A stretch of DNA of 64,000 bases from Antedon mediterranea (taxonomy: Eukaryota; Animalia; Echinodermata), in NCBI RefSeq assembly GCF_964355755.1, contig NC_092675.1:27996912-28060911 (forward strand), written 5' to 3'. The notes beneath the pieces were generated by a model. It worked only from the letters and a program-made list of their open reading frames with translations. It searched no databases and was not told the DNA's origin. Position 1 is the first letter of the stretch; each line of letters begins with the position of its first letter. A program made the position numbers and the translations under genes. Of this stretch, positions 770 through 58,216 are shown in pieces.

Positions 770-1942
770 ATGGCATGTGCATTTTCAATCTCTCATCTCA
801 TCGTTCATTTATTTGTTTTATCAATTGGCGAAGGCAGCTTCAACATTCACTGTAATCCAGAAGATAGAATGGATTCTTTTATTGGTGAAAAAGCCTACTT
901 CAGTTGTCAGATCAATCGTCTAATTATTTCAACGCAAAACGCAAACTTCACTGTTAAGTGGATTCACAATGGGTATAATCTAGTGAAAACCGAACATGTA
1001 CCGGTAAACACAACTGGGTATACCATTCATGTTTCACTAAGCTTTAATAATTTAAGTACATCTCATACCGGTGAATATAGAGTATCGGTGATGGATAATA
1101 TTGATAAGAATTTCCTTTCTGATCCTATCGAACTCTTTGTTTGGCCACCGCCATTCGTAAAACTTTGCAACGCTTCTAGATCGCATTACTCTAGTGGTGA
1201 AGTGGCTACATTGAATTGTGTGGTAACCTCTCCAGCTAGATACTCGTTGTATTGGTCAATTGAACCAGAAATGCGGGATGTTGCTTATGTGAACACCACT
1301 GATTTTAATGGTAAAACGAAGAATGTAAGTATGATGTTCAACGTTACGTTGTCAGACCAAAATACATTTAGCTGTTTTATAAAAGGACTAAATTCGTTTG
1401 AAAGGAAGCTTTTGTGTATATTAAAACCATTATTCGAATTTTTCGCCATAGATAGCCTTCAGATTCTGTCTTCTACATTTATTCTTGGTAAGAATGCTCA
1501 GTTGGAATGCAAGTATACTGAAATAATGACTGTACATATTGTTGAGGCGTTTGCTAAAAGAGATGATATATTACCAGACGCGCAAAATGTATATTGGGTC
1601 TCAAACAACTCTGCAGTAAACAAACAAATAGAAAAGGGTAATGGCACAGGATTGCTGACATTGAAAAACATTTCTTCTGACATCAACTACAGTAAAATTA
1701 CTTGTATAGTTGGCCAATGGAACATTTCTACTATCATACAAGTTGTAACAGGATATGCAACAACAACTGTACAACTGACAACTCTATCAAATACACATAC
1801 CAGTATTGAGACAATTACAAATAAAAACGAAACATACTTATACATTTTAATTGTGGTTAGAACAAATATATTATTCGTGGCGAGTATAACGATTATCTAT
1901 TTTCTGTACACACAAATTAAACGTACATACTACAACGTCTAA
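770..1942 (+). CDS. IgSF type I membrane receptor, family A member 1 (3 Ig-like domains, Arg in TM, short tail), single coding exon, 390 aa
   Basis: Hydrophobic N-terminal signal peptide. D1: FSCQI..VKWIHNG..LSFNNLSTSHTGEY. D2: ATLNCVV..LYWS..DQNTFSCF. D3: AQLECKY..VYWV..LTLKNIS..KITCIVG. Thr-rich stalk, TM LYILIVVRTNILFVASITIIYFLY, tail ending KRTYYNV. Many NxS/T sequons. Paralogs at 6419 and 23685. Confidence 0.88.
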   Translation: MACAFSISHLIVHLFVLSIGEGSFNIHCNPEDRMDSFIGEKAYFSCQINRLIISTQNANFTVKWIHNGYNLVKTEHVPVNTTGYTIHVSLSFNNLSTSHTGEYRVSVMDNIDKNFLSDPIELFVWPPPFVKLCNASRSHYSSGEVATLNCVVTSPARYSLYWSIEPEMRDVAYVNTTDFNGKTKNVSMMFNVTLSDQNTFSCFIKGLNSFERKLLCILKPLFEFFAIDSLQILSSTFILGKNAQLECKYTEIMTVHIVEAFAKRDDILPDAQNVYWVSNNSAVNKQIEKGNGTGLLTLKNISSDINYSKITCIVGQWNISTIIQVVTGYATTTVQLTTLSNTHTSIETITNKNETYLYILIVVRTNILFVASITIIYFLYTQIKRTYYNV

Positions 1943-3887
1943 GTAAGTACCTTGTACCAAGTACCGGTACTATTATAAGTTTTTTTTATTTAGGTATTAG
2001 GTTATTTTTAAGTATTCTATCGCTGTTAAAAAAACGAGTAAGGTTAATCATTTTTGTTTTTTATATTGTAAAATAAGTATTTAAATATGAAGAAAAAGTT
2101 AATTACAGAAAATGAACAGTTAAACCAGGGGAGACATTTTCACCCTGGTTCAACATTGCGCGTATAGGCCTAACCATTCTTAATTATCTAATGCAAATAA
2201 GTTGGCCTAAAGGCACTATAAATAGGCAGTGTATATTTTATAACAGTAAACCTATAGCTAGTATTTAAATTGTATTGTAAAAAAATGGTTGAGGCATACT
2301 TATGTATTATACTTGTCTATAAAGTAACGAGTTATTTAAGCTTTAAATCTATTCTATTACATGCTTATCGGTAAATAGATCGGTCGATGAGAGGAGGTAC
2401 AGGGATGGGAAACACTGACGTGAGATTGTTTAGGAATGATAATCTGAAAACATACCAGCTTATGTTAAACAAATCAATGACAAAGACAACTTTTAACTTT
2501 AAAAAAAATATATTTTTAGTGAACTAACTTAGTGTGCTAACTTATATAAGGTTGTTATTGAGAAGATTGTACTAAATATGCCAAGATTGTTTTTAAATAA
2601 TTATGTACATTTTTAACGTAGATCAGATATAGCAAGTTATGTTCGTAATAATCATTTAAATGTGTGTGCTAAGGCTTGCAGTAGGCCTACAAAGTTACTC
2701 CAATTAAAATATGATTATTAAAAATACGGCACTGGACTGAAATTAGTTTTAAATCTGCACTTTTTAAGATATAGATCTCATACATTGACATTTTAAGCTT
2801 GAAATTAAACATGTCCATTATCATATAAAAACTGAGCTTCATCGATTAAATTACAGTTAAGATTGTTACAAAATATCTTTTTTTTTTATGCAATTATTTT
2901 TGTCTCACCTTTTTTACTCTATTTTTTAAAATTAATTGCTGTTTTATTGGAAGAACCAGACTTGAAAACCTTTCCTCACAGAAACTAATGTTTTGTTTAC
3001 ATAACCAATTACAGAGGGCAGCACACTATTTCAATCGTATATTACAAACTAATAGTATCAATGAACCAATAGGTTCTTGATATTACTTGATAGTGCTTGT
3101 TACATCTGATTATAAATCTAAATTAAATCAATTTTTATCTCATCATAATTGATAGAATAATTACAATAATATAAAATCGTGTTTCTCTACTCAAAACATA
3201 AAATCTTCAATCAGGTCGAAGTATAGAATATATCTATGTCTTTGAACCACTACTGTCTCTTCTTCAGTACAGTAAGGGTCTACAATGGATGGCTATATTG
3301 ATACAGTAATATAGCATAAACGCCAGTTAAATAAAACCTAGTAGACCTACCGTTTGATTTTACAATCATTCGGGAAATTATTTGTGTTTTGTTTACTGCC
3401 GTACGTTGGTTTGTAATATAATATGAATACCGGACGTTATTCCTTATTTTAATATTTAGTAAGCTTAGATCTAACAATAAACGCATCGTACTGATTGCCC
3501 TGAATTCATTTAACATACGATACTTGTATATCATGATTGTCATATCAGCCAGTAATTCATAGTGTTCGTGGTCGAGTATTAGAACTTCCTGACAAAATGG
3601 AGGTGTGGTTACATGAGGTATTCTTTATAACTTTCTGGGGAGACCAGTTCGCTGGTTTTTCTTGTAAACATAAATGCATTGCCGACCGACCCAGTATGTG
3701 AGGTTCTACTGCACGGCAACCCTCACACAAAATACATACATTTTTTTCAATCAGATTTTGAATATGCCATTTTGCACTTTTCATAAAGTTAACTGACAGA
3801 AAATTTGGCTAATAGTTTGCTTTAAATATAGCTATAGGTAAATAGTGAATAACTATAATAATGTGAAATTAAAATGGCATATACAAC

Positions 3888-4183
3888 AAACAAGGCCAAC
3901 AGCCATAAGTCGCGTGCTCTCAGAAAAAAATGAACTTTCAAAAAGTAATGTACATCAAAACAGTTCAAAAAGTTCAGAAAAGCGATAAAACGCATAGTAT
4001 ACCGGACCGACAGACAGACCGACAGACCGACAGACCGACCGACCGACCGACCGACCGACATAGTGAACTATTGAGTCGCGTCCACGCGACTAAAAACAAG
4101 GCCATATACATGGTTGCTCAAGTGTTGACCAACCGACCGACATAGTGAGCTGTGGAGTCGCATTGCACGCACGCGACTAAAAA
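3888..4183 (+). mobile_element. Two adjacent short Helentron/DINE-1-like non-autonomous elements
   Basis: AAACAAGGCC start, internal (GACA/GACC)n microsatellite, 3' hairpin AGTCGCGTCCACGCGACT followed by AAAAA. A second shorter unit follows directly (~4094-4183). A reverse-oriented relative lies at ~36654-36756. Confidence 0.6.
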
Positions 4184-5289
4184 TGTGTTCAATTGTCTTT
4201 GCAGGGGAACAATAAATCTTTAATAAGAAAAGGAAGCGCTGAAACAATTATTAAAAATAGAGTGTATACTAATACACATTGTTTACGAGTCTCACTTGCG
4301 GTTTTACTTTCAGAAGCGTGATAAAAATACACATTTATGTATTCCAATTATGATATTATGCAAAGTTTATTATCTCGGTTTATCTTGCACTTTATAAAAG
4401 CTGAATTGTATACAAGTTACATTAAATTCTTTTCATTCTTTCAAAGGAAATAAATACTTGATGCTTAGATTGAACACATTTTTTTTAGCCTTTGATAAAA
4501 ATAAAAATCCACTTTAAAAACCGATCAATGTACAATAATAATATACAGTACATTTACAATTTAGATATCTTATAAGACAGCCGACATTAATTTTATTTAT
4601 TTTTACGCTAAAATAACACATATAAAATATATGATATATAATAGGCCTATAAACATCAAAGTAGATCTAGGCGATGGAATAACAACTGTTGAACTTAACA
4701 AGGATTTTTTTCGAGAATGCTGTACAGTCATATATGATTTAAGTAAACACAACTTATTATTTTAATTTAATTATTCTGAAACTGTTTAAAAGTAATACCG
4801 GGATAGTTATACGTGCTTACTTTTATTCCTCATGAACATTTCAACCAATGAGCTGTTCGATGCTACATATTTCGAATTGGAACTACTGTAGGTAAGATTT
4901 GATTTAATTTTTGACCGGCAAAGTCTTCATCTTGCAAACCCAGAGTGTTACAAGTCCATTACACTCATATAAAGCAAGCAAGCCTTTACTGGATAATAGT
5001 ACTATTACGGTATATAGAAATAAGACTGTTTTTTGATAGAATGCTCCTACTGTATATGCCATCCATTGTGATCACTTTGTTTTCCAAGTGAAAGCAGCAT
5101 GTTTTTACCTTTCAAGATACGCCACGGAGGTATAAATAACTCCATTAATCAATATACTATAATTGGATTATAAATGATGATATAATAAATGTGAATGAAA
5201 TGAATACGCAAATAATAAATATGTATTGGTATTTCAAAATGGTTGTACGTTCGGTTTTTGGTGAATCCAAATTAATAAAATGACTGTCT

Positions 5290-5420
5290 ATTTAGAAACC
5301 CGAAAACCCTGTAATATGGAGGATAGCATTAAATAACATGGTGTCCAGAAGAAAAGTGGAAAGAGGACGTTCTAAAACAACATAAGGTGGACAGTTGAAA
5401 AAGAGATCGACGATAAATAT
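5290..5420 (+). mobile_element. Degenerate 3' fragment of an RTE-clade LINE
   Basis: With frameshifts it encodes IAL..TWCPEEK..RGRSKTT*..TVEKE, matching the RTE ORF C-terminal pattern W.PEGKR.RGRPKTTW..TV.KE. Confidence 0.4.
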
Positions 5421-6418
5421 GACTTTTTACTACATAAAACAAAAGAAATCTTAACAGTTTTTCTCTGCTACTAATTCCAGAACAAACCCACATAACTGCA
5501 TTATGAAACTTTCCCAAATTCTGTCTTAAGTAAGAAAATGTATGTTTGTCTATTTATTGTCGATCGTTATCTTCTTCTGAAGAGGATGATGAGAATGAAA
5601 TGAAAATTCTTACGAGTAATTTTCAATGAAACAAAGAAAATATATTTGCCATACGACGAGTAACACCTCTACAGTACAGTAGTAGAGGAATGAGATACAG
5701 TGTGTGTAACATTGTCAATTTAACATCCACCACCAAACAAGGGAAGACTTTCTCTCTTTTTTTCGGTTTATCACAACACAAGTGTTAATTTTATTATTAA
5801 ATGCTCATTAAATAAATACAAATATTAACGTTCAGATTGATTTTCATAAAAACTCCAAACTCCAGACCAAACTTTATTATTTGTAGTGATGACATTTTTA
5901 AATTGCAATCCTCTCCCCATGCTGCCAACGTGTATACAGTACAATGTTTTTCCAGCTGGACAAAGTTTTATCTGACCTAAAAACCAACATGATTATCCAG
6001 ATGAAACACATGGTCTTTAATTTTTCCTACCCTTTAATCAAAAATAAAAACATTCTATTTTTGTCCTTAACACAGTTTTATTCTCGAACATTTTACACGA
6101 ACTTCCTGATAATTTTGTATTAGCACCGCAATCACACAACCTACCATATTCTGCTACAATTAAATCGAAAGAATTAATCGAAACTACGTAACTAAGCCTA
6201 CTGTGCGTTATCTGAAAAAAAAGTTGATATATTAACGAAACTACCTGATCTGCCAACATTCGAATTGGAAACGCAAGTAACTAGATTTAGTATCTTTTGA
6301 TTAGTAATTAATAATTTATCTTACAAGAAAGAAGTCGTTTTCTTTAAAAGAATTACAGTATTGCTTAATTTTCGGAATACTCTGTCCTTTTCTATCGTCT
6401 TAACAAATACTATAGAAG

Positions 6419-8620
6419 ATGCTCAGCAACAGAGTGGGTCTATTTGTCATTGTAATACTGCAGGTTTTTGCTGTAACACCTGTCAAAAGCGATGTCAATA
6501 TTAGCTGTAATCCAGTTGGTAGAATTGATGTTTTCATTGGTCAAGAGGCGTCCATCTGTTGTAAGGTCAATCGTCCAACTAGTTCGCAAAGAGTAATCGT
6601 CACCGCCAAGTGGTTTCACAACAACAGTGATAATGTCGTAAAAGTCGAGAATATATCAGTACCTTCAACTGCTTATGTAATTAATATTTCACTAAACCTT
6701 CATAATTTAACAATATCCAACAACGGGAAATATAAAGTATCGGTGAAGGATAACATGATAAAGACAAATTTACTTTCTGATCCTACCACACTCTTTGTTT
6801 GGCCATCGCCATCTGTAAAAGCCTGTAACGCATCTAAATCACATTACTCCAATGGTGAAGTAGCTACATTGAATTGTGCAGTAACCTCTCCGGCTAGATA
6901 CGCGTTGACTTGGTCAACTGAATCAGAGGAAGATTTGTCTTTAGTAAACATTTATACAAATGGTACAAGGAAGAATGCAAGTATGATGTTCAACGTTACG
7001 TTACTGTCCGATCAAAATACATTTAACTGTTTTATAAACGGAATAAATTCTTTGGACAGAAAGCTGCTGTGTACATTAAAGCCTTTATTTGAATCTGAGG
7101 TTATATATCTTCAGCTTTCATCTTCTCCATTTATTATCAGTGAGAGTTCTCAGTTAGAATGCAACTTCACTGAAACAATGACTACACTTATACATATTGT
7201 GGACGCATTTGAAAGAAATGACATTTTTTCAAATGTTAAAAATGCATATTGGATCTCCAACAATTCTGCAATAAACAAACAAATAGAGAAAGGTAACAAC
7301 GCGAGCAGGCTGACATTGAACAACATTTCTTCAGATATGAACTACAGTAAAATTACTTGTATAGTTGGTCAATTCAACACTTCTACTATCATAAATGTCT
7401 CAACAAAGTATACAACAATAAAAACCACAACTCATCTAAATAATGATATACTTACACCATTTAAGGCTACTGATAAACCTACCACTTTCTTTATTGCAGC
7501 TACCATAGGTTCACTTGTACTAGTAACTTTTCTCATAACGTTGATAATATGTTGTGTTATGTACAAAGTATATCATAAACACGATACTGAATCAACAAGC
7601 ATACGATACCCCGAGACTAGGCTTAACCAACATAGCATGCCAGCTGGAATAAATACAAACATACAGATTGGACTTGACGTGTCTACAATAAATACAGAAG
7701 AAGCATTCGAAAACATTTATGACGAAATCAATGAAGTGATGCCATATCGTTATTGCAGTAGGCCTACAATGCATATACCGGAGTTTAACACATCGTTTGA
7801 AAACAGGAAAGAACTATCTACGAACCAAGCGAATGAGATACTACAATTATTATCAAGTCCGAATTATACAGAGGTTAGAAATACAAATGTTAAAAAGGGT
7901 GGAGAAAAGAACCAAATTGTTCGACTACATAATCAACAAACATCATTACCTGGAATAAGCACAAACCAATCAACCATATCCCTACCAAGAATGCAATTAG
8001 TTGAAACTTTTGGTAATGGCGTTTTAACAATAAATCGAAATAAAACGTTGGACAGTGCCGAAAACATGACAGAGGATTGCATTAACACATCGAAGTGTAA
8101 AACATCTGTTAATAGGCGTTCAGTTGCTCGTTTTACAAACATTAATAAAATGCATAATACAGGCTTACTTCAGCTATTATCAAGTCCAAATTATGCCGAA
8201 ATTAAAAAGGAAGGTGATGATGGTAAAATCACGTGTTATTCAGAAAATACGGTAAAAAATAAAGAAGAAATCAAGATAGTTGGCCCACCAGATAATCATA
8301 TATATTTAGATAAAAATACAAACCGATCGACATTTGATGGACCTACAGGACTTGAAATGACTACACATAGAGTATCAGATGGTTATGACGAAATAAAAGA
8401 TGGGCCATATGATTACAGTAGGATACCACATGGAAGCAGCAGTGGCAGCATAGAAAGCAGGATACAGTTGAATGTCATGACGAATGTAACTGACAAGGAC
8501 AACTTTACAATACTTCAACTATTATCTAGTTCACACTACGCTGAAGTTAACACTAGTAATGATGAAACAAGTACGTGTTTTTCAGAAGATAATGTAATTA
8601 CAGAAGACACTAATATATAA
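6419..8620 (+). CDS. IgSF type I membrane receptor, family A member 2 (3 Ig-like domains, uncharged TM, ~350-aa tyrosine-motif tail), single coding exon, 733 aa
   Basis: Signal peptide MLSNRVGLFVIVILQVFAV. Ectodomain collinear with the 770 and 23685 ORFs. TM FFIAATIGSLVLVTFLITLIICCVMY. Tail contains ENIYDEI, three LQLLSS(P/S)(N/H)Y(T/A)E(V/I) repeats and GYDEIKDGPYDYSRI. Confidence 0.9.
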   Translation: MLSNRVGLFVIVILQVFAVTPVKSDVNISCNPVGRIDVFIGQEASICCKVNRPTSSQRVIVTAKWFHNNSDNVVKVENISVPSTAYVINISLNLHNLTISNNGKYKVSVKDNMIKTNLLSDPTTLFVWPSPSVKACNASKSHYSNGEVATLNCAVTSPARYALTWSTESEEDLSLVNIYTNGTRKNASMMFNVTLLSDQNTFNCFINGINSLDRKLLCTLKPLFESEVIYLQLSSSPFIISESSQLECNFTETMTTLIHIVDAFERNDIFSNVKNAYWISNNSAINKQIEKGNNASRLTLNNISSDMNYSKITCIVGQFNTSTIINVSTKYTTIKTTTHLNNDILTPFKATDKPTTFFIAATIGSLVLVTFLITLIICCVMYKVYHKHDTESTSIRYPETRLNQHSMPAGINTNIQIGLDVSTINTEEAFENIYDEINEVMPYRYCSRPTMHIPEFNTSFENRKELSTNQANEILQLLSSPNYTEVRNTNVKKGGEKNQIVRLHNQQTSLPGISTNQSTISLPRMQLVETFGNGVLTINRNKTLDSAENMTEDCINTSKCKTSVNRRSVARFTNINKMHNTGLLQLLSSPNYAEIKKEGDDGKITCYSENTVKNKEEIKIVGPPDNHIYLDKNTNRSTFDGPTGLEMTTHRVSDGYDEIKDGPYDYSRIPHGSSSGSIESRIQLNVMTNVTDKDNFTILQLLSSSHYAEVNTSNDETSTCFSEDNVITEDTNI

Positions 8621-8755
8621 TACTGTAGGACTATACAATAACAATTTGATCTCTGTTGCGCGTGCGTACAACTGAGGGACTAGTGCTGTTCCGCCGTACC
8701 ACGCAGAGAATGTTAAAGAGTCGCTATCGAATCGGGTTTGAACAGTACCATGAAA

Positions 8756-8827
8756 GACCCAGTGGTCTAATGGTTAGGACATCTGCATATCAAGCAGGAG
8801 GTCCGAGTTCGAATCTCGGTTGGGGCG
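8756..8827 (+). tRNA. tRNA-like sequence, anticodon ATC (Asp); probably pseudo-tRNA or head of a tRNA-derived repeat
   Basis: Cloverleaf by eye: acceptor GACCCAG/TTGGGGC (one A-G mismatch), D arm with AATGGTT, anticodon arm TCTGC-ATATCAA-GCAGG, T arm CCGAG-TTCGAAT-CTCGG. A and B boxes intact. Confidence 0.5.
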
Positions 8828-11059: not shown

Positions 11060-11091
<32 letters not shown>

Positions 11092-11473: not shown

Positions 11474-12889
11474 TTTTCGGAACACACTCAATACTTTCTT
11501 AGGGAGAAATCAGGTATGACCTAAAATGCCCCAGAATGTATGTTGTAGCCAACATTTTGACATTGTATCGCATGGAACACCTTAGAATGGTTTCAAAACA
11601 GTATATATCTGAGCCAACAAGTGGATTTTATGACTTTATTAAATAGCATATGACGTCACAAAGAACGTTATTTTTGGCATGTCTTCGGAAGCAACGTCTT
11701 CAGATTGCTTGGAAATGTCACCCAAACCATGGAGGAAAAACAAACAAAGTTCAAGAAAAGATGTCAACCCTGTTCTGATTGATCGGTTAAAATGCTATAA
11801 TGTATGTTTTATTCATTCATAATACAAAGTAAAACCCAATAGGATTGACGAGCTGGATGGCTCAGTGGGCTTGAATTGTATTGAGGCTATATCGATTGTC
11901 TACTTGACAATTTTTCAAAATATATTTTTCTTTTATTTTGAGAGAAATTATTAGGGTTAGGTTTTTAATATTTAGGACGAGTTTTATTATTTATGTTTTT
12001 CATCAAGACAAGTTCATAGTAAATAAAACTAAGCCGTCAGACACAGATAGATGCACTATTGGACTAAACAACGATGCCACATACATGACCAATGTGAATA
12101 CAGACACTATTCCAACATTCCCTTCCAACATCAAAATCAGATACAATTACATGAAATGCACTTAGCAACGATTCTGAGGATCAAGTGATTGTTTATACAT
12201 TGTGGCTGTTCACCATTCGTGAAGACGAATAGCCAATGAGGTTGCTTAACTATTTATATTCAATTCAAATTGAATTGTTGTTTTGCTTCCTTGTCAAATT
12301 ACGAACAAGGAACAGGAAGTAAAGTGCATTACAGGAATAATAATCAAAAACGTTGTTACAAGACAAGTTTTCTATATCGTCGTATTGTATGATAATTACG
12401 AAAATTAACTTTAAGGTGAGTGTGTGATAGTAGAATACAATGAGTCCGGCGTTTGAGTCCTTGCTGAAGATGGATCAACTATTTTCATTGTTGGGAATTT
12501 GTTTTGTTTCATTTTATTCTTTTATCTTTATATTACGGTTTTCTGCATTTCTATAAAATATGTAACTTAAAATAGGCCTTTATAGCTAATAACGTGGAAC
12601 ATGCTTTTTCAAAGACGTCTAAACTCGAGCAGCATAAGTTACGCGTGATTTCAAGAATTGTATGATTGATCATAAACAAATATGCTTCATATTAAGTTAA
12701 TCCTATAGCATTTATCAGAGCAAATCAGGCTATTGAGCACCGTCCACATTTCACCCTTTTTTTCATTTAATTTATTATGTCGTAATAAATTTGCTAGGTA
12801 CCGTATTTAATAATGACGTTGGCGATCCGACTGTACCACATTTGAGTTTCTTGCTACTCTCCAGCAGTTAAACTCATGAAGATATACTC

Positions 12890-13126
12890 TTTTTATTACT
12901 CGGGGTACCCGAGTCTAGGACTCTCTCATCTTCCATCTGGACAGTATTGAGCCAACTTTCAAGTCCTACTAGTTCTTTACGCGTCGTCTGGACGGCTCTG
13001 AACCATGTCATGCATATACTAGGGTAATAGGTGAACAAAGCTATAGAGAGAAAATTTTCGTACTTCGATGCAGAATTATGATGTCATAAACATGGTACCC
13101 CGAGTATCGCACATTCGTGCTTGTTT
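12890..13126 (-). mobile_element. Short Helentron-like non-autonomous element
   Basis: Subterminal inverted TACTCGGGGTAC/GTACCCCGAGTA and end GCACATTCGTGCTTGTTT. Same family in opposite orientation at ~30028-30315. Confidence 0.55.
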
Positions 13127-13402
13127 CTTTAAGCCGCTGGACCCTACTTCTACAGAATATATAGTATTTTAGAATTCATGTTTATGCTGAAACTCAAATT
13201 AATATTTTATAATAATTATTGATTAAACATACCATGACACAGAATGCAAATGTGTGTCATTTACTAATTTTGTGGATTTCTTTATTCAAATTCAATTAAA
13301 TTATTACTAGAATTTCTAAAATGTCCTAGCATTCATTTATTTCTACTTCACTTCACAGCAGTAGGCCTACTTGAAGGAACATTAAAAGACGAACATAAAG
13401 CA

Positions 13403-14281
13403 ATGTTACTCTCAATAATAAACCATAACAAAGTAATTGGTATTCTACTGGTATTTATCCCAATAATTAGTGGATGCAGTTTAATTTCATCTCCAGATAC
13501 AACAACAACTGTGGTGAAAGGCAAAGCTTTTGTAATGACCTGTGTCTTTCACTGCCAAAGGAATCGAACCTACATTGGATCGTGGACAAGAGGAAACATT
13601 AACATAATAAACAACAGACATGGAATAACTACAATAAGTGCAACCTCTCACAATGCCAAGGGAACATTTGTAAATACTACATTAAGAACACACAACACAA
13701 AAGTAGAACATGAACATGTGTATCGATGCATTTTGAATGATCCCACTATCGATATAAACGTTGAAACTTCTGCTGGATGCTACTTAAACGTGTTGAAGCC
13801 ACCAAACTCAAAATTTCCACTCATTAATTCCAGAAGTCTTGAAAATGGCATAATGATAGCAACGTGTATTACAGAGAAAACTGATCCAATACCAGAATTA
13901 CATTGGCAAGATAAAAGTGAATCATTATTTGCTACCAATAACGTGACACACGTTGAAATTAATGGGATATTTAAAGTTGATGTGAAAGTGGTTTGTATTA
14001 TGCATTGGTACACTGAAGAACCACGATATGTTCATATCAGACCATCAAACAGTAAAAATACGACGAATTTGTATGCTGATGAAAAAAGGACGTTTTTGTC
14101 AACTACTGATGAACCTATATGGCAAACGGAAAAGAATGATGGAAAGTCTGAAAAAGAAACTAATAATAATATTTTAATTGTAATTAATGTTATTATTATA
14201 AATATCATCATTTTTTTCAACATTTTGTTTATCTATTGGCGTAAACTTAAACGAATTATCCGTCAGTCGACAGATGTCTGA
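13403..14281 (+). CDS. IgSF type I membrane protein, family B member 1 (V/I-like domain + short C2-like domain, Asn-containing TM, short tail), 292 aa
   Basis: Signal peptide ending ISG-C. D1: FVMTCVF..GSWTRG..TTLRTHNTKVEHEHVYRC. D2: ATCITEKTDPIPELHW..KVVCIMHW. TM ILIVINVIIINIIIFFNILFIYW followed by RKLKR. A splice acceptor near 13358 and donor AAG/GTGAGT near 12416 suggest a 5' UTR intron. Paralog at 25554. Confidence 0.85.
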   Translation: MLLSIINHNKVIGILLVFIPIISGCSLISSPDTTTTVVKGKAFVMTCVFHCQRNRTYIGSWTRGNINIINNRHGITTISATSHNAKGTFVNTTLRTHNTKVEHEHVYRCILNDPTIDINVETSAGCYLNVLKPPNSKFPLINSRSLENGIMIATCITEKTDPIPELHWQDKSESLFATNNVTHVEINGIFKVDVKVVCIMHWYTEEPRYVHIRPSNSKNTTNLYADEKRTFLSTTDEPIWQTEKNDGKSEKETNNNILIVINVIIINIIIFFNILFIYWRKLKRIIRQSTDV

Positions 14282-15906
14282 AAGTATGTATTTTGTTTAA
14301 TTTCAAAGCGAACTTATTCTCACGAATCGAAAGCGGCGATTTTGATCATAATGCTTTTGCAGATTTTGCATTCGGGATATAGGCTATGTCAGTCATTTTC
14401 TTTTATATAGGCCTAACATTTGTACAGTTTCTGTGAGTTAAATTAGAAATAGAAACAAATGCAAATGGAGTGTATCGAAGGCCTGCTCCTGTTCTGACAT
14501 CAAAGGTATCTTCCTTGGCGGATGAATTTCAATGAGTGTGTAATAATTATCTTGTTTAAGGTTCTTTGATTTCAATGCAAAAAAGTTGGATAATGGAACA
14601 TTAACATAATTGGTCTCATCAACAGAGGATTTGTTCGTATCCCGTGTCACTGTTTCCCTTGCAAATTTTGTAAATTTTTATAAATGTTTTAAGTTTTTTA
14701 TATATTATATGTACGAGTAGTTGCCAGTGGAAACTTCCACTCTAAAAATCAGTGGAGAAATTAAAGATTTAGAAGCAAACATATATTATATAAATATATA
14801 TTTTTACAAATTAATAATAATAACTAAAAATACGAAGTGTATAAATCTATAACAAACAACTGTTGACAATTCATAATGCATAATTTAGGTTTTAGCAAAC
14901 TAATATTAGATGACACGAAACAGGATGTCATGAATTTTATATTTAGTATAAAAAAATGTTTGCCTTAATATATAAATTTTGTAAATATTTATATATTTTT
15001 GGTTTTTTTATATACTTTTATATGTAGTAGTAGTAATTGCCAGTGGAAACAGAATTTCCACTCTAAAAATAAGTGGAGAAAATAAAAAAAGTTGCCCCAA
15101 TGTCTTTAAATGATTTTGTTATTTAACTGTAGCTTTGAAATGTTTCTGTTAACACTCTTTAACAACAGGGTGCCTACGGGAAAACATGCATATTATTAAT
15201 AATTAATCTCCCCACTTTGGCACAGATGGTAGATTCTGCAAATAGGCCTAAATAATAATATATTACTTTGCCACACGGCATCTGAAAAATTGTGCATTGT
15301 AAAGTAAAACGATAAATAAAATCAATTGTTCAATACTGTTTATTATCTTCAATGTTGATTTGTGAATAATATAAGCTTTAGTAAAAAATATACAATTATT
15401 GATACAAAATGGAATAAAGTAAATTTTATATAAAAAAAATTATTGGTTTACAAATTTATGATAATTTCAAGATTTCGTTTTAAAATGTAACAATGCTCGC
15501 ACATTATTTATACAAATTAATAATATAAAACTAAAAACATGAAGTTTATAAATCTATAACAAACAACTATTGATCAAAGTATTTATTTGTCAAAATGTAA
15601 GGATGGCAAAATAATCAAACTGATAATACATAAAGAGGGGAAGCACACAATTATTTATAGACATTTCATATTGCATATTTTTTAAGTTTTTATTTTTAGA
15701 TATCCCAAAACAGTAAGTCATGAATTTTAAATTTAGTATACTAACAAATGTTTGCCTTTTACTGTATTATATAAATGTTTAGTATTTAATTTATATTTGA
15801 ATATGGCATTAATCATTTACAAACATTCATTCTACAATCCAAACTATTATAAAAATACATATAATTAAAAAATGTGGCTCAGAAATTAGCATATGAGAGA
15901 GGGCTT

Positions 15907-18900
15907 TTAAACAGCTTCAGCAAAGCCTAGACGATCTGCACCCTTGTCAAACTCGGTGTAGAACTTGCCCAAAAAGACGTCACCCAGAATCCACAGAGGG
16001 CCAGCTGGCGGTGCTACATCTAGAGCTTGGAAACCACTCAGACAAATGGTTTCACTCCCCTGTGCAAACTGAAATATAAACAAATAAAAGTTAACTAAAA
16101 GTTAATCAATCATGTTGAGCTTAAACCATTGTGACCCAGTTGCTAGAGACATCCAACAGGAGGAGTGCATTAGGAAAAAATTCTAGATATGATCCCAAAA
16201 ACTCAAATATATGTACCCTTTGTGAAACCATGTAATTGCTGTAGTAGAATCTTGGTAGTAGAGTTGTTGACTGCAATCTGGAACAGAACTATTATTGACT
16301 ACAGTCAAGTCTTCCAATACAAGACTCTCTGACAACCGGAAACTTTCCCAAAACCAGATTTTTCTTGAAAATTCACTTATACTATTAAAAATACACTCCA
16401 AATACAATACTTTCCACGAAACCATATATATTTTGCCAGCCCAAAGGTTTCCAGTATTTAAGAGTTTTTACCTAAACTTAAAGCTAATTTAACAAATACA
16501 GTTTTGACATACCTTGAGTACATAATCTTCACCCGTCAAGTTAAATGCCTTTCCGCCAAGAACAAAACCAATCTTTGGTAACGACGACACTTGATTGCAA
16601 TCAAATATGTACTGTAACAAGAAGATATAAAATAAAATGTATTTCAAATTTAATAGTGAATAATACTGCATTATTTAATATTTGCATAGGAGGTTTGGAA
16701 ACAACAAAATGCAGATGTGGATGGAAACCATTGCGAAAACGGTTTGTATATGTTCTTTTAGATTTTATAATCACAGTTTTGGAAAATGACTTTCTTTCCT
16801 TTTCCCCAGTAACCCATATATTATTTTGTGGATTCTTTTAACCCTCTTTATATTCCTTACTGAGCCTTGCATTTCTTTGGCACCAAGTTCTTTGTTGATA
16901 GCTAAGACATCAGTTGTAGGACCAGCAATTAAGGAAGTACCTGTATCAGCAATAGCTTCACAGCCCTTGGACAATATTTGGAACCACCTTGTGTTGCAAT
17001 GCAGAAAAATATACATAGATATTTTATTTTCTCATAAAGGAAAGAATTACTAGCACTATGAAATTGTTTAAGACCTATTTAAATATATATAAAATGTTTG
17101 TATTTCATAGTCAGGTCGACGTTATCTGCAATAAGGTATCAAAATACAGTTGTGCATACAGGACGTATTATGAAGCCTAAACTTTATTTTAAATGGAACA
17201 CTTATATTGTTCACGTTTTTCTTTTCTTCTACCCTAATAATATGCTTTGGCATTACCATATATTGATTTTAGAGACCTATTTATCTTTATATATAAATTA
17301 TATAGATTTTCTGAAATGAAAGTGAAGATAAATGAATACATCAATAATATTGACAACAATAAAAACTACCGCATGTGATCATTACAACAAAAAGGAACTA
17401 TTTATAATTTTAGAAACAAAAATCAATATAAAATATATGTGGAGTGTTTGTACACAGTGATAACAAATATTATTATCTATATTCCGTCATTTTTTCTCTC
17501 AAAATTACTCGACCAAACTCTCGCAACACCGACTTATTTTCCCTTGCCCGTTGTCGAGTCAACGTAACCAAAAATGGTTTCATTTAAAGATTATCCAAGC
17601 TTTTTAATTCAATTTCTATTAAAGATAAGACTATCGATATTTTTTTTGACACTTTGTCCAAATTTAAGTCTAAAGTTCTTAAATCGATTTAAAGGGGGAT
17701 TCTGGGTTTAAAATTGCTTTTAAATATCGTTTATTTATTAAATAAAAAATATTTTAACAATATAGACATGTCAGAATGAAGAAATAATAATGAGAAATTA
17801 AAAAAATAAAATTTCATATACATTTTAGGCTAAATTCATGGAAAGTCTGTTTTTCAGCAGCTTAGGGAAGCTCATTAATATTCATGAGATATTCACAAAA
17901 TCACGTCATCAGTGGATTCCAAACTCGTCATGTACGTTGTGTTTGTCAACTAAATTTACATCTATCTCCCCTGTTAAACGACGACCACCCGATCATTGTG
18001 AAATAAATTTTTTAAGCTAGGCCTAAAGTGTAATAATAACAGTAGTAGCATATATTTATTTGACATTTAATGAAATACAAAATTTAGTACAGACTACGGA
18101 GTCATAAATTATATACTATTTTTATACCTCGAATAGTACAGATCGTATTATCGGCTTCAAGTACTACAGTACTAGGCTAGGCCTAGCCTAAATCATTTTT
18201 TTTCATGGGTGAGACTGGGAGCCATTCTGACTAGGGATTAAAACGTTAAAACATTGGGGCCCATCATGGGCCTAGCTAGCCTACTACCTGTACTAAATGA
18301 TTGGCCCATAATAACAAAACTCAGTGGATTCCGAACCCATCCTATAAACCAAACTCCTAAACAATCTAAACCTAAAACATTCTACAAAATCGGCTGTAAA
18401 TATCGCCGTTCGCCGTCCGCACGTATGGTGTCCCGGTCGTCTAATAATAGGCCTAGGCCCTCTAGGCCCTAGGCCTAGTTACTCTCCAAAAAAGCGGATA
18501 CTACTGCATCAAGCAAGTAGACCAGGTAGTAGGAAGGAGACCTAGCCGATCCGGCCCAGTTAAAAATTGAGCTAGCTAGTGTAGTAGACCCTATGCGAAT
18601 TGATACTACCAGGCCTTTTTTTACTAGGCTACACTTCTTAAAATTAACAATACTTATGTTTACAAATATTCCAACTCTCTCATTCGAGCTATATTATCTA
18701 TACCATTCCGGTAGATCGAGTCGACCTTCAATCAAATACTGTACATCGTTCATGTTGTAATTATAGACGGGGTATACTCGACCCGACCAGTTTGGTATTG
18801 TATACTGTATCTGCTTATCACGTGACGATGCCAGGCATGGGCAGGTAGAGAGCACGTGTATCGTCGTCTCGCTCTCCTCGCTCAGCAGGAATGTATACGT

Positions 18901-20474: not shown

Positions 20475-21289
20475 CTGAAAAATAATATTTGACATTTATA
20501 CAATGTTATTGTGATATAGTATATTAAAACAATTTTACATTAAGAAGAAATTGTTAAATATAATAAATACAATAAAACTACTTTTACAACTTGCACTACA
20601 ATTTATTTCATTTCTTTATGGGGAAGGGATTTTGAGGATACTCTCATCAATTTGTACCTACCAACTCTTACGCATAATGCGGAAGTCTCATGCATGAGGC
20701 CAGATTGTTTTAGTCGTGTGCAATGCTATTTCCCGCACATCCATACAAATATTCAGAAAAAACATTATTTTGAAATGAACTTGCCGATTTTGAGGAAAAA
20801 AAGCCTAGGACTGCACATTATTTAATTAGTTTGAGAATAATTAGCCTAGTTAAGTAGGCCTATGTTTGTTTGTATTTATGGTTAACCCATTGACCCCTAA
20901 GTTCATTTTGCTAAAAAGGGACCTAAAAAGCATGTCACGTCATAATTAACCATAACTTTTTTTTTAAAGACAAAAATTCAAAAAATCAAAAAAGAAAAAT
21001 AATGCAAAGGACATTTTCTTTTCAAATATGTTATCAAATTTGTGTTACAACTTATTTTGCCGGAGTATGGATTATGCAAATTTTAGAAATATTTTAGGAA
21101 AATTACTAAACATTTTTAATTTATCTTTGACGTACTACCAAAATTACTAAATAATTGAATAAAACTATATCTCTTCAGCAGAACCTATTTCATCAAAATA
21201 AGACCAAACTTGACCATTATGAATGACCGGTTTTGAAATTATGAATAAATTAGTAGACGGACTCATCCGTCGATGACCATATGGGGCCG

Positions 21290-21451
21290 GGATCCAGTCA
21301 AATCGCCCCATCGCGACTTTGCAATGGGGCGACCTTGTGATGGATGACTTTGCGATGGGGCGACTTTGTTTTGGGGCGACTTTGCGATGGGGCGACCTTG
21401 TGATGGATGACTTTGTATGGATGACTTAATGGGGCGACTTGACTAGCTTCC
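21290..21451. mobile_element. Small MITE with internal GGGGCGACTT tandem repeats and ~9-bp TSD (Mutator-like)
   Basis: TIR GGATCCAGTCAAATCGCCCC / GGGGCGACTTGACTAGCTTCC. Flanks ATGGGGCCG and ATGGGGCCT. Confidence 0.6.
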
Positions 21452-22157
21452 ATGGGGCCTAGGCCCATCACGAAACCTAAGATCACGAAAGCTAAGACTC
21501 CCTACTAAGATCTAAGATTACGAAACCCAAGACCCAAGAGCAAGACCTAAGACTTAGCTAAGATTACCAACAAATCTCTATCGCACCTGCCTTGTATTTT
21601 AACTCTAAATTTGTTAACCAACTTATTCCGAATACCACACCTTATAATTAGATGAAGAAGAATCAATAAATAACAATAGATTCTTTAAATAAATTGATGA
21701 TTTTACAGACGTTTTCTCATGCGAATCTCGCATACTCTATGTTCAATATCATGTTTCTATGGAACGCCAAAGAGCAACATTAATGAAGGGCTAAAAACTA
21801 TGCGGAATCCATCTATTTAATTCATTTTTTTGGTGAAAATCATGTTCAATTCAATATATGTTGTCACTGTTAATACAAATAAAATGTTACTGTTGATACT
21901 TTACACGGTTTCGTTAACGTTAAGAAAAGAAATCGACAAATTCATCATATCCCCTTACTAGGCCTAGGGTAAGTAGTGATGCTTATTTTCAGATCGATTA
22001 ATATTCTTTGAAAATAGAAAAGTATCAGCAGTAACATATTACAGCATTTTTATTGACAAATTGACAAAATATATTGAACAAATTAAATGTGCATTTCACC
22101 AATAAATTCCATCAAGTTGTTAGCCCTCTAACTCTATTATTGTTGCTCGCTCTTTTC

Positions 22158-22608
22158 TCGTAAATCTTCTAATTGTAACCCTGGGTTATTATTCTTTGTT
22201 TTTTTGTTTCTATTTTTTGTTTTTTTAGGATGGGTTACTATTAGGGTAGTGGGTTACTATTACTAATCTTAAAAAAGGCACTTGAAAATAGTAACCCACC
22301 CCAACTTTTCCGGCCAGCAAATCATAGCAAAATAATAAAAATTACGAATAAACAAATTTATTTGAACTCTAACTTTATTTTATAAACTCAAAAACACTCA
22401 ATCAACATGCATTATCTCTTTATTTTCAAAATACGGTGACCAGTCTTAATAATGTCATTTTGTCAATAGTTTTTGTGACTCTAATATTAACCCCATGGGT
22501 TACTATTAGAGAAGTGGGTTATTATATAGATTGACTTATAAGGTGGGTTACTATTAGAAGGGGGGTAATTTACTATTAGAGTGTGGGTTACTATTAGAAG
22601 ATTTACGG
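22158..22608. mobile_element. Tc1/mariner-pogo (Tc2-like) MITE
   Basis: TIR CGTAAATCTTCTAATTGTAACCC / GGGTTACTATTAGAAGATTTACGG|TA. Internal GGGTTACTATTAG repeats. Confidence 0.6.
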
Positions 22609-23684
22609 TAGTTGTTTAGTAAAACATTGCACACATACACTTAGACGACATTATTACAATACTAAACTAAGGTAGCCTACATCAACTAAATTATGTGAAT
22701 AATGTTATGATAAAGATGAGTAGGAATTACTCCATAAATATTTAAAGTAATCACGAAGTAATTTTTAATCTATAAAATAGATTATTTTTATGGATTGTGA
22801 TAGGTGTATTCATGTAAATGGCATATACTCTAAAAATACGGTACACAATAACTGTAGATTAAGGTATAAAATTAATTCTTTATTTTATAATATTGTTCAT
22901 TTCCCTTTCTCCATGAAAAACACGATATTGTATACGTAATTTACTTATCCGTCCCTGCCTATCACATGCAGTGAAGCAATGTTAAGCAAAAAGTGCAGAA
23001 CATGTACTTTCTGTTTTCGTCGTTACTTTCAGAAGCGTGATCAAACTATTAATTTATGTAATATTAATAACAATATGAAAGTTGTATTATTTCTGTCATA
23101 GCCATCGGCACGCTATGCTGGTATCAAAATTAATTTGTCTTTGATTCTTTAAAAACTATATAATAACAAATATATATAGTATTAGGCCTGTACTTGATAA
23201 TGATATTTTAATTTAAAGAATACAAAAGTAAAATAAAAATTTAGCACAAAAAAGTTAAGGATTTTGTACTAAATTTATAAAAAGTAGAAAGCGATATTTA
23301 TAATAAAAATGTAAGCAAGTTATTCTTAATCAAAATATCCTATACAAAAATTATCTTAACCGGTCCATAGATATTAACAAAAAATGGGCTAAATCAAATG
23401 TGATAATAACAAAGTGATAATAACAAAGTTTATTGGTGAGTACTATTATATTAAAACAAAACTTAACTATTCATTTATCGAAACTGTTTGAAAGTATACC
23501 TAGACTAATAGTCAGATTACTTTTATTCTTCATGAAACAGTCCATAAGTGATGAGCTGTCCATGCTATTTGTTGGTTTTAAATATAGATATGTAAGAAAG
23601 TCGAAGACGGATACATTGTTTAATTTGTGTCAACAACTTTTTGTAAGTTTCTCAAAGATCATACAGTTCTACTGAATTAAAATT

Positions 23685-24857
23685 ATGGCGTGTAGAGTAT
23701 TTTGCATGTCTCATGTCATACTGCACGTAATACTGCATATTTTTGCTTTAACACGTAGCAAAGTTAACGCCAATATCCATTGCAAGCCAGTGGGTAGAAT
23801 TGATTTTTTCATTGGTCAAACAGCCTACATCAGTTGCCAGATAAATCGTGAAACTATGAGTAGACCTAGTTCGGAAAACGTAACAATAACTGCTAAGTGG
23901 ACGCACAATAGCTATAATCTAGTAAAAACTGAGAATTTACTCGCAAACTACACTGTGTATACAGTTGATGTTTCACTGAGACTTAATAATTTAAGCATAT
24001 CTGACGGCGGTCAATATAGATTATTTGTTACGGACACCGTTGGTACTACATTGCTTTCTCAACCTGCTACCGAAATCTTTGTTTGGCCAGCGCCGTTTAT
24101 AGAAGTGTGTAACGCATCTAAATGGCAATACTCCAATGGTGAAGTAGCTACATTGAATTGTGCAGTAACCTCTCCAGCTAGATACTCTTTAACTTGGTCA
24201 ATTGAGCCACAGATACAGGATTTTGTTTTGGTGAACACTATGGATGGTATAACAAAGAATATAAGGCTACTGATTAACGTTACGTCACTGATCGATCAAA
24301 ACACATTTAGCTGTTTCATAAGCGGAATAAATTCTTTGGTCAAAACAAATTTGTGTACATTACAACCTATGTTCGAATATGTGGTCATAGACAGCCTTCA
24401 AATTGTATCTTCTCCGATTAATCTTGGTGAGAAGGCTCAGTTAGAATGTACATTCACTGAAGTAATGACTTTACATTTTTTGGATAGGTTTGCTAGAAGG
24501 GATGACATTTCTAGCGTTGAAAATGTATATTGGATCTCAAATAATTCTGCAGTAAACAAACGAATAAACCAAATTAATAACAAAAGACTGCTGATATTGA
24601 ACATTTCTTTTGAAATGAACTACAGTAAAATTACTTGTATAATTGGTCAATGGAACATTTCTACTATCATAAAGGTTTCGAAAAATTATGTTACTACTGT
24701 ACAGCCCAGTATTAACACAATTAAGAACAACAATGACACACGCTTATACATTTTAATTTTTGTCAGAACTATACTTGTAGCACTTCTTATCATAATACTA
24801 CTTATTTTGTGTACAAAAAAAATCATACGTAGGCCTATAACAAGGCTGAAACCGTAG
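23685..24857 (+). CDS. IgSF type I membrane receptor, family A member 3 (3 Ig-like domains, Arg in TM, short tail), single coding exon, 390 aa
   Basis: Collinear with 770 and 6419 (e.g. GEVATLNCAVTSPARY, NYSKITC). TM LYILIFVRTILVALLIIILLILC. Tail KKIIRRPITRLKP. Confidence 0.88.
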   Translation: MACRVFCMSHVILHVILHIFALTRSKVNANIHCKPVGRIDFFIGQTAYISCQINRETMSRPSSENVTITAKWTHNSYNLVKTENLLANYTVYTVDVSLRLNNLSISDGGQYRLFVTDTVGTTLLSQPATEIFVWPAPFIEVCNASKWQYSNGEVATLNCAVTSPARYSLTWSIEPQIQDFVLVNTMDGITKNIRLLINVTSLIDQNTFSCFISGINSLVKTNLCTLQPMFEYVVIDSLQIVSSPINLGEKAQLECTFTEVMTLHFLDRFARRDDISSVENVYWISNNSAVNKRINQINNKRLLILNISFEMNYSKITCIIGQWNISTIIKVSKNYVTTVQPSINTIKNNNDTRLYILIFVRTILVALLIIILLILCTKKIIRRPITRLKP

Positions 24858-25553
24858 TCGTACATCATAAGCCTACTTGATAAATTGTATAGATGTATGG
24901 TATTTTCATCCAACAATACGTCAGTTAAAAGATTTTAATTTGTTTAAATATTATTTTCATTTCTGTTTAATGTATTATGACAGATATGGAGGTAGTCCGT
25001 ACCTTTATTAGGTAGTTGTATAGGGTGCGCGGGTGTTACAGTAGACAAACTATTTTATAGACTACGAATCTCCAAAGGTAATAATAATTCGGGCTCTGCA
25101 CGCACCAGTACAAGATTCTATATACCACTATGTACCACAACAGAGAAAAATTTCACTCGATAAAACCGGAATATAATAATATAGACGTTGCATAAAATCA
25201 TTCAGACACCTACAGAATGAGTCGATGGATCCAAAGGCGAGTACTACAAAAGACAGAATTGGCCCTCTACATATCAAGTCATTCATAAAGAAGCACTTCG
25301 TGTGAAGACACAACGATCACACTCTGTCAAGGTATTTTTTTTTATTCCCATTGGTTTGTTAAAAAGAAATTTCTAAATTCAATACATTGATCCAGTTGAT
25401 ATCGTTTTCAATCCGTTTATATTGTTTTCTGTTTGTTCAAACCATGTTTGTCACCAATCAGTTTCTTTTCTCTATTTCAGAAATAGTTCAATTTTTTCAC
25501 TAATCGTTACTGTGTCACCTCTAAACGGACAAAAGAAGAAGAAAATAACAATA

Positions 25554-26342
25554 ATGAAACTATTAATCGTTATGATATTGGTTTCGTCGATTCCAATAGT
25601 TAGTGGATGCAAGTTACTTTCTTCTCCAGATTTGAACACAACTGTTGTGAACAACAATTCTATTTCACTGAACTGTGCATTCCATGCTTCCAAGAAAAAT
25701 GAAGTCTATTCTGCAGTGTGGACAAAGGAAGGCACTGAAATACCAAATTTGGCTGGGAAGCATACTGAAAACATAATTTCCCATAATAAAAGTGGCACAT
25801 TAATAAATAGTACTTTGCGAATAGATCACTCAAACATTAACGATGAGGGTAAATATCGATGTCTTTTGAAGGCTGGCGAAGTTAGTGTGGAGGCCTCTGA
25901 TGAATGTCAAGTAAATGTATTAAAGTCTCCAAGCACGATATTTCCACTCGTTACTACGACAAGTCTTGATAAAAGTGACATGATGAGGGCAACGTGTATT
26001 ACCGAAAAAACCGTGCCACTACCAAAACTGTATTGGCTTGATCAGAGGGGACCGTTATATGCTAATAACGCGACACATATAATAATTCATGAGATATTCA
26101 AAGTTGATGTGGAAGTGGTTTGCATTATGCGTTGGTATACGGAAGAACCACGAGTGAGTATATTTCCAAGAAATGTCAATACGCCTGATGACATGAAGAA
26201 GACGCTTCCACCGGCTGTGCAAGCGGAACACAAGCTGGATTCCTACCTTATCTGTATAATCTTCTTGAATATCTTTTGCTTGTTTTTATTATTTGTTATA
26301 TCTTTCCGCATATTTTATTGGAATGATTGGTGTAATAACTGA
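25554..26342 (+). CDS. IgSF type I membrane protein, family B member 2, 262 aa (true start probably ATG 25554, not the TTG at 25422)
   Basis: Signal peptide MKLLIVMILVSSIPIVSG-C. D1: ISLNCAF..AVWTKEG..STLRIDHSNINDEGKYRC. D2: ATCITEKTVPLPKLYW..VVCIMRWYTEEPR. TM YLICIIFLNIFCLFLLFVISF. Upstream polypyrimidine-CAG acceptor at ~25480. Confidence 0.85.
   Translation: MKLLIVMILVSSIPIVSGCKLLSSPDLNTTVVNNNSISLNCAFHASKKNEVYSAVWTKEGTEIPNLAGKHTENIISHNKSGTLINSTLRIDHSNINDEGKYRCLLKAGEVSVEASDECQVNVLKSPSTIFPLVTTTSLDKSDMMRATCITEKTVPLPKLYWLDQRGPLYANNATHIIIHEIFKVDVEVVCIMRWYTEEPRVSIFPRNVNTPDDMKKTLPPAVQAEHKLDSYLICIIFLNIFCLFLLFVISFRIFYWNDWCNN

Positions 26343-37919: not shown

Positions 37920-58216
<20,297 letters not shown>

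Follow-up and report, generated by a model that had tools for sequence, protein, structure and literature searches.

Paired receptor systems of vertebrates in which one class carries a membrane arginine, such as LILR/PIR, CHIR and Xenopus XFL, consist of clustered genes with similar immunoglobulin (Ig) ectodomains, where a class with a short tail and an Arg placed in the outer helix half stands beside a class with an uncharged helix and a tyrosine-motif tail, as set out in the portions of the literature cited here (PMC2413239, PMC13107469). A layout alike in these respects was found in a stretch of 64,000 nucleotides (nt) of the crinoid Antedon mediterranea (GCF_964355755.1, NC_092675.1, 27,996,912-28,060,911, forward strand), which as a whole is the window analysed here and in whose numbering positions are given. 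Five Ig-superfamily genes of two families follow one another in the order A1, A2, B1, A3, B2, all on the + strand, and they form a real tandem cluster with a paired-receptor-like layout and two different wirings behind one ectodomain family: A1 and A3 carry an Arg in the predicted membrane helix and tails of 10 and 14 amino acids (aa), and A2 carries an uncharged helix and a tail of 352 aa.

According to the sections of the vertebrate literature on which we draw, helices that bind FcR-gamma carry an NxxR motif at the helix start (PMC2413239, PMC6557307), and CD89, NKp30 and NKp46 use an Arg located in the helix's top half to couple to FcR-gamma or zeta (PMC13107469). In contrast to the receptors associated with FcR-gamma or the leukocyte receptor complex (LRC), such as CD89, NKp46 and GPVI, A1 and A3 are devoid of NxxR, and each Antedon gene is one open reading frame (ORF) where those receptors have an exon per domain; a sequence link to LRC or FcR domains was not found. 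Moreover, unlike the vertebrate pairs, the A2 tail mixes motifs spaced as a tyrosine-based activation motif of immunoreceptors (ITAM) with others resembling the inhibitory one (ITIM). By analogy, the cluster may be functionally like the LRC/FcR pairs, yet it is no member of them, as judged by NxxR and exon structure.

Among invertebrates, Hydractinia likewise has a tandem family, Alr, whose unusual V/I-set receptors bear ITAMs or ITIMs in some cases and include a few tails shorter than 14 aa and domains without the canonical Cys pair, in the portions of the source available (10.1101/2022.03.04.482883). In Alr each domain has an exon of its own, whereas the Antedon genes are single ORFs, and the family differs further by an Fn3-like spacer that holds six invariant Cys and by activation motifs placed in the receptor's own tail; the third domain of family A, in contrast, aligns with an I-set domain of P0095, a protein retrieved by profile search (see below). 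No charged helix is described in those main text portions, and of the two uses of 'charged' in the text one concerns an Ig salt bridge. Homology between Alr and the Antedon proteins was not detected, no search aimed at it having been made. In Botryllus, two receptor families, fester and FcoR, are also encoded side by side, and FcoR is an Ig receptor whose long tail contains ITIM, hemITAM and YxxI/L/V core motifs, as given in the parts cited (PMC12065747, 10.1101/2024.10.16.618699). FcoR is arranged as V-sushi-C2-C2 and fester has three helices, whereas the Antedon proteins are single-pass with no sushi match in Pfam; besides, the Botryllus pairs lie head to head, whereas all five Antedon genes share one direction. 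The word 'charged' is absent from the main text of both Botryllus reports, and the helix sequences of Alr and FcoR may nevertheless contain charged residues. The cluster is thus neither Alr nor fester/FcoR: its long-tail half is of a known kind, that of the Hydractinia and Botryllus tyrosine-motif Ig clusters, and its short-tail, charged-helix half is unusual, no report of such a partner outside vertebrates having been found in the open-access full-text literature.

Gene set and shared ectodomains

The five genes correspond to the five longest of the 52 stop-to-stop frames of at least 70 aa in positions 1-30000, with frames of 321-734 aa and 143 aa for the next longest, in animal DNA with a G+C content of ~33% over the window. 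Each of them runs in one reading frame from an N-terminal signal peptide (a hydrophobic N-terminus, judged by eye) to the stop; the gene models were drawn from ORFs alone, and protein lengths were counted from the first ATG. All five proteins are single-pass according to hydrophobicity windows. Pfam Ig models were matched by 5/5 proteins (Ig_3, E 9e-10 to 7e-5), and at least one curated Pfam cut-off was passed by four of the five, A2 passing none. In this way, both the gene set and the order were recovered as described in the initial annotation, which had proposed five Ig-superfamily receptors in two families with each A group followed by a two-Ig B gene. Further or decayed A or B copies were not found in the window by tBLASTn and nhmmer.

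A1, A2 and A3 all lie inside 25 kb and show 61-62% identity over domains 1-3 in all three pairs, which is below the level of the closest vertebrate receptor pairs. Over these domains, the synonymous divergence (dS) was ~0.5 and the ratio of nonsynonymous to synonymous divergence (dN/dS) 0.46-0.53, with bootstrap intervals of 0.32-0.72, all below 1, and B1 and B2 were 49% identical over two domains with a dN/dS of 0.46. Across the intact frames of 262-733 codons, dS ranged over 0.5-0.8 at a dN/dS of ~0.5, and the receptor genes are under purifying selection; neutral evolution of the short forms, named beforehand as an outcome that would speak against paired receptors, was not seen. Domain 1 is the most diverged of family A (50-55% identity vs 63-72% for domains 2-3). 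Its dN/dS, which had been singled out as a check, was 0.45-0.67 across the family, with no excess of amino-acid change at this depth of divergence.

The three-Ig ectodomain common to the A paralogs was also upheld, with the third domain weakly recognised by Pfam (E 5e-4 to 0.12) and assigned on account of its colinear profile match to P0095. Domain 1 of A3 gave a good model (predicted local distance difference test, pLDDT, 71-92 per block, residues 1-110), which is a V-frame Ig domain (Z 11.9, root-mean-square deviation 2.5 over 91 residues to a V domain) without the F-strand Cys and with a Cys in the first strand instead. Its fold matches to SIRP-alpha, Siglec, PILR and T-cell receptor V domains were tied (Z 11-12), and a kinship read from SIRP-alpha, Siglec and PILR heading the list was rejected because the top rows were tied. 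The full-length model of A1 was poor (pLDDT 37), domain 2 remained below 50 in a second model, domains 2-3 were not confidently folded, and Foldseek returned generic two-Ig matches only.

Two types of membrane helix and tail

From hydrophobicity, the Arg is predicted to lie in the membrane. The best hydrophobic windows (Kyte-Doolittle) of 19, 21 and 23 residues include it in both A1 and A3, with 7-8 apolar residues before it and 16 after it to the cytosolic end, in the outer half of the predicted helix. The block around the Arg is the best kept of the A1/A3 helix (8/9 residues), and the A2 helix is uncharged and 23% identical to the helix of either short form. By a crude insertion score, the Arg was in all nine top windows of A3 and in the best window of A1 at each of three lengths. 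The short forms with an Arg inside the membrane segment and tails of ~10-14 aa, and the long form with an uncharged segment and a ~350-aa tail, had both been described in the initial annotation, and both descriptions hold.

Conservation of the Arg beyond A1 and A3, on which that annotation had also depended, was observed when contigs of four runs were compared with positions 1780-1960 (21 of 23 pieces, bridging being defined by a 31-letter rule). The Arg was kept in 5/5 contigs bridging the A1 codon, which represent three distinct sequences, two from organism B (in each case from a pair of samples of a single study) and one from a second organism-A sample; two of the five, both with one organism-B sequence, keep it via a synonymous change from AGA to AGG. 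Over helix codons 356-380, the listed differences comprise four synonymous and two replacing ones (I to V, S to N), an excess of synonymous changes with a P of 0.025 against a neutral share of 0.22, in a region chosen after data inspection. These comparisons provide modest evidence for selection on the Arg. A loose end in both organism-B runs looks, by eye, like a third helix of A3 type joined to an A1-like tail.

The A2 tail contains 14 Tyr, of which six lie in YxxI/V motifs (2.6 on average in 20,000 shuffles; P 0.027), and it holds five YxE[I/V] sites, a number reached in 0/20,000 shuffles. With the ITIM and ITAM consensus taken from the available portions of the Hydractinia study (10.1101/2022.03.04.482883), one ITAM-spaced pair, Y656DEI-x6-Y666SRI, was identified (P 0.027 vs shuffles), and no immunoreceptor tyrosine-based switch motif was found in the tail. 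The tail consists of three diverged units of ~110 aa each, in all of which a block [IL]LQLLSS[PS]xY[TA]E[VI] can be aligned, and a YDEI-PY block is present in units 1 and 3; because the tail is a triplicated unit, its motifs are not independent. In the 13-codon blocks, compared in three pairs, the residue is unchanged at 14 differing codons and replaced at 10, and the rest of the units barely aligns; the kept residues thus argue that selection maintained the Tyr sites. Judged from these alignments, the ancestral tail unit probably combined a single ITAM-like element with a single ITIM-like one.

A candidate paired receptor system and its alternatives

Our preferred explanation, which we hold tentatively, is that the cluster works as a paired receptor system, A2 via its own motifs and A1 and A3 via a partner chain docked on the Arg. 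A2 would signal via its own tyrosine motifs, with a Src-type kinase phosphorylating the YxE[I/V] sites; the three LLSSxxYxE[V/I] blocks would recruit an SH2 phosphatase, making A2 mainly damping, and the YDEI-x6-YSRI pair could recruit a Syk/Shark-type kinase, making it possibly dual. A1 and A3, signalling little alone, would bind the same ligand class via the V-frame domain 1, the most diverged domain, would dock their Arg on a separate chain with an acidic membrane residue, and would give through this chain a signal opposite to that of A2. An immune setting, such as coelomocyte recognition of microbes or cells, would be suggested by nothing but the layout. As for its origin, the system would stem from an uncharged, tyrosine-tailed three-Ig ancestor, separately from the vertebrate pairs. 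That crinoids independently evolved activating receptors in the full sense, with an Arg and an acidic-helix ITAM adaptor paired with a phosphatase-recruiting sibling, appears doubtful.

If that were true, vertebrates would not be alone in having paired Ig receptors coupled to an adaptor, and echinoderms would have to possess an FcR-gamma- or DAP12-like chain so far unrecognised. In Alr and FcoR, the known invertebrate Ig receptor families that have immune tyrosine motifs, the receptor's own tail holds the motif. Whether intramembrane basic-acidic receptor-adaptor assembly is older than vertebrates, or has arisen more than once, becomes a testable question, for which the A1/A3 helix offers a specific bait in adaptor discovery.

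Several observations weigh against a paired system of this kind, and the partner chain is its weakest link. No adaptor was found in the window, to which the search was directed, the only + strand ITAM with an acidic lead being in A2. The A1/A3 helices lack NxxR, with Ile at -3 from the Arg in both; of the vertebrate-style recruitment by a basic residue suggested in the initial annotation, the placement of the Arg in the same helix half as in FcR-gamma-coupled receptors stands, but the motif is missing. As the A1 and A3 helices share 38% of residues, one common Arg is weak evidence, and neutral retention of its codon would be 15-40%. An Arg outside the membrane had been named as counting against the idea: the best windows include it, but a 19-residue window of A1 without it is nearly as good (-0.10 vs -0.39). 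A dN/dS above 1 was not seen in any Ig domain, domain 1 included. The A2 tail, previously described as rich in YxxI/V, retains its motif excess, but a single motif matches the ITIM consensus (0.74 expected by chance) beside the ITAM-spaced pair, and dual would be a better name for such a tail than inhibitory. The A1 tail carries a C-terminal YYNV of its own (1928-1942), which we take to fit a Grb2-type YxN or a class II PDZ pattern. Splice donors inside the short tails fit the consensus weakly, at 4 of 7 places in A1 and 3 of 7 in A3, and splicing to further tail exons may be possible; a GTAAGT was seen directly after the A1 stop. Independent paired receptors in an invertebrate are thus favoured by the layout hallmarks, the purifying selection and the crinoid host, but not by the absence of NxxR and the ITAM-spaced pair in A2, and nothing examined points specifically to allorecognition, which had been offered as an option.

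Some of these points would also suit an arrangement in which A2 is the sole signalling chain and A1 and A3 compete for its ligand, either as decoys that do not signal or as siblings serving adhesion only, the Arg being tolerated near the outer face, or used for sorting or self-association, without an adaptor. Although it is rather unlikely, this arrangement agrees with the absence of NxxR, with an Arg retention not far above chance, and with an A2 that, holding ITAM-like and ITIM-like motifs, needs no activating twin. In the part of the source cited, ascidian genomes are reported to be without DAP12 and DAP10 homologues (10.1101/2024.10.16.618699), which speaks for decoys and against a partner chain alike, and three Hydractinia Alr tails are shorter than 14 aa in a family signalling via own-tail motifs, as far as the available portions describe it (10.1101/2022.03.04.482883). 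However, the 7-8 hydrophobic residues before the Arg make a placement outside the bilayer hard, and the best-kept block of the helix (8/9) surrounds it, in codons where synonymous changes prevail. It is more unlikely that the genes encode lineage-specific adhesion or cell-recognition molecules of the nectin/CADM/CEACAM/B7 type outside immunity, used in nerves, epithelia, gametes or regeneration, with tails that tune adhesion signalling. The V-C2-I and V-C2 layouts, selection that is purifying and not diversifying, the best solved-structure sequence matches (for A, CEACAM6 at E 0.003, and for B, CD276 at E 2e-6, both at generic Ig level) and the B1 terminus STDV (14267-14281), which presumably fits a class I PDZ-ligand pattern, would be in line with such a role, but an orthologue of a conserved adhesion molecule was not found in homologue and profile searches, and receptor birth and death is in keeping with the rapid divergence, the tandem duplication and the additional diverged forms. 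To our knowledge, a membrane Arg with a stub tail is no hallmark of adhesion molecules, which also counts against this role.

The gene order A2-B1 and A3-B2 raises the question of whether A and B are obligate partners, either as cis heterodimers, as in Botryllus fester/FcoR, or as a receptor linked to a B7-like ligand, in which case the A+B pair would be the duplicated unit and the Arg of A and the Asn of B (three in the B1 helix, one in that of B2) would aid assembly. Fester and FcoR are encoded and co-expressed as pairs in the parts of the reports cited (PMC12065747, 10.1101/2024.10.16.618699). Nevertheless, A1 has no B gene behind it, a decayed copy not being found in the window, the B helices offer no Asp or Glu to pair with the Arg, and an A3-B2 pair would have no signalling tail, so that we consider obligate pairing improbable. 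It is very improbable that the short forms are copies of a long-tail gene that have been truncated, are not expressed or are decaying. An annotated protein identical to any of the five genes was not found (0/7 look-ups), as decay would predict, but the frames are intact over 262-733 codons at a dS of 0.5-0.8 and a dN/dS of ~0.5, A1 and A3 share a helix type of their own and not a truncated A2 helix, the A1 helix-tail region is also present in organism B, and upstream non-coding blocks are kept.

Relatives, gene history and neighbouring sequence

A profile search of 1.84 billion representatives yielded 31 matches at E <=0.001, nearly all of them summed short generic Ig stretches, and P0095 was the sole match of the 31 colinear with family A over three domains (probability 97%, E 1e-10, ~20% identity; 81% against B domains 1-2). 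Its domains are V-set, C2-set and I-set according to Pfam, and it has in common with family A a four-Cys second domain; it differs by a canonical Cys pair in domain 1, uncharged helices, tails with Tyr motifs and two fused units. The annotation of P0095 seems to have joined two tandem genes for three-Ig receptors, both of which have tails with Tyr. With this uncharged, Tyr-tailed protein as single outgroup, the Arg and the stub tail look derived, and a wider family may underlie the cluster. Among the six solved-structure matches of family A at E up to 1, none was an LRC chain. Family B resembles B7/CD276, butyrophilin-like proteins and amphioxus IgVJ-C2 in its V plus C2 ectodomain and short tail, the IgVJ-C2 match (E 0.003) being at generic Ig level, but differs from B7-type proteins by an extra Cys pair in domain 1, a shortened domain 2 and Asn in the helix.

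Close homologues of A1 and A2 were not found in a word-index search (1738 and 7009 near-length candidates; the search covered family A), exact look-up in a collection of 15 billion proteins found 0/7 sequences, and 0/75 pattern matches of a metagenome scan were confirmed. Compact, fast-evolving Ig receptor genes thus seem missing from the searched protein collections, though a neighbouring Antedon gene is annotated. Atlas look-alikes (an echinoderm cluster with 93 members, 0.95 for both A1 and B1; but also herpesvirus glycoprotein C) were kept as leads only.

The matching non-coding blocks upstream of the A genes (Table 1) favour tandem duplication at the DNA level, and a retro-copy origin was disfavoured by the same blocks. 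A second match joins 4304-4379 with 23023-23096, the two A2-A3 blocks being 75% and 78% identical, and no direct A1-A3 upstream match was found. The three ectodomains are equidistant, with site patterns of 96/96/84 over domains 1-3 in a star shape that is compatible with either the presence or the absence of gene conversion between the forms, and helix and stalk are common to A1 and A3 only (stalk site patterns 21 vs 10 and 2). As read from these patterns, either near-simultaneous duplication or an exchange of ectodomains between signalling types would fit.

Table 1. Positions of the receptor genes and of sequence features within or upstream of them.
Feature	Position	Strand	Description	Basis
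A1	770..1942	+	390-aa type I receptor: signal peptide, V-frame/C2-like/I-like Ig domains, stalk, helix, 10-aa tail	ORF, Pfam, P0095 alignment
A2	6419..8620	+	733-aa receptor: A-type ectodomain, uncharged helix ~7490-7561, 352-aa tail	ORF, Pfam, alignment
B1	13403..14281	+	292-aa V-C2-type receptor: three Asn in helix, short tail with terminal STDV	ORF, Pfam
A3	23685..24857	+	390-aa receptor: A-type ectodomain, helix with Arg361, basic 14-aa tail without Tyr	ORF, Pfam
B2	25554..26342	+	262-aa V-C2-type receptor: one Asn in helix, tail ~10 aa	ORF, Pfam
A1 Arg364 codon	1859..1861	+	16 residues before end of hydrophobic stretch	
A3 Arg361 codon	24765..24767	+	Aligned to A1 Arg364 in common block YILIxVRT	
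A2 Tyr434 motif	7718..7729	+	YDEI, homologous to first half of unit-3 ITAM-spaced pair	
A2 tail block 1	7838..7876	+	ILQLLSSPNYTEV, near-ITIM, Pro at -2	
A2 tail block 2	8165..8203	+	LLQLLSSPNYAEI, near-ITIM, Pro at -2	
A2 ITAM-spaced pair	8384..8425	+	Y656DEI-x6-Y666SRI	
A2 tail block 3	8510..8548	+	ILQLLSSSHYAEV, with sole canonical ITIM (SxYxxV, Tyr707)	
Block upstream of A1	441..552	+	Non-coding, 70% identical to 4780-4885 upstream of A2	
Block upstream of A2	4778..4885	+	Non-coding, matches blocks upstream of A1 and A3	
Block upstream of A3	23480..23567	+	Non-coding, 75% identical to 4778-4865	

Second forms of the genes were also observed in the runs. In the same sample, a second A2-tail form differs at 79 positions and by 18 gap letters across 590 bases, and a second B1 form shows 57 differences over ~500 bases; both are ~11-14% diverged, and each may be an allele or a paralog. 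Among the 15 of the 57 differences listed for the B1 form, 9/12 codons are changed, counts that are no selection test. The A2-tail form of organism B shows 83 differences and 27 gap letters over 680 bases, and further diverged forms of A1 were seen in the runs as well. In run X5, a B1-like contig of organism B had a depth of 164 over 12672-13495 vs 23-29 for the remaining contigs listed, which hints at the collapse of several B copies, depth not being copy number. Run X8, putatively RNA, covers A1, A2 and B1, with greater depth over B1, but as unique intergenic DNA is covered too, it was left out as evidence of expression.

As regards the neighbourhood of the cluster, an aspartyl-protease (cathepsin D/E-like) exon region occurs in three copies, all on the - strand (16771-17028, 30381-30596, 38655-38996), one of them between B1 and A3 within a duplicated segment, 15258-17303, that matches 37277-39467 at 76-91%. 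A tRNA-like element called tRNA-Asp with an ATC anticodon lies at 8756-8827, 136 bases behind the A2 stop, and its very high depth in all runs suggests a tRNA-derived short interspersed element. Further along, three tandem copies of a ~1.5-kb unit, 84-97% identical and with no long ORF, occupy 31134-35834, and the - strand carries an open 948-aa endonuclease/reverse-transcriptase frame of a long interspersed element (40951-43797) and a zf-RVT fragment (46249-46983). At 59316-61115 (+) lies a large exon for a conserved multi-pass membrane protein that belongs to no Pfam family, is named only 'uncharacterized' and is found from cnidarians to echinoderms, hemichordates and amphioxus; its 590-aa frame (59343-61112) is 99% identical to an Antedon mediterranea NCBI protein and 83% to one of Anneissia japonica.

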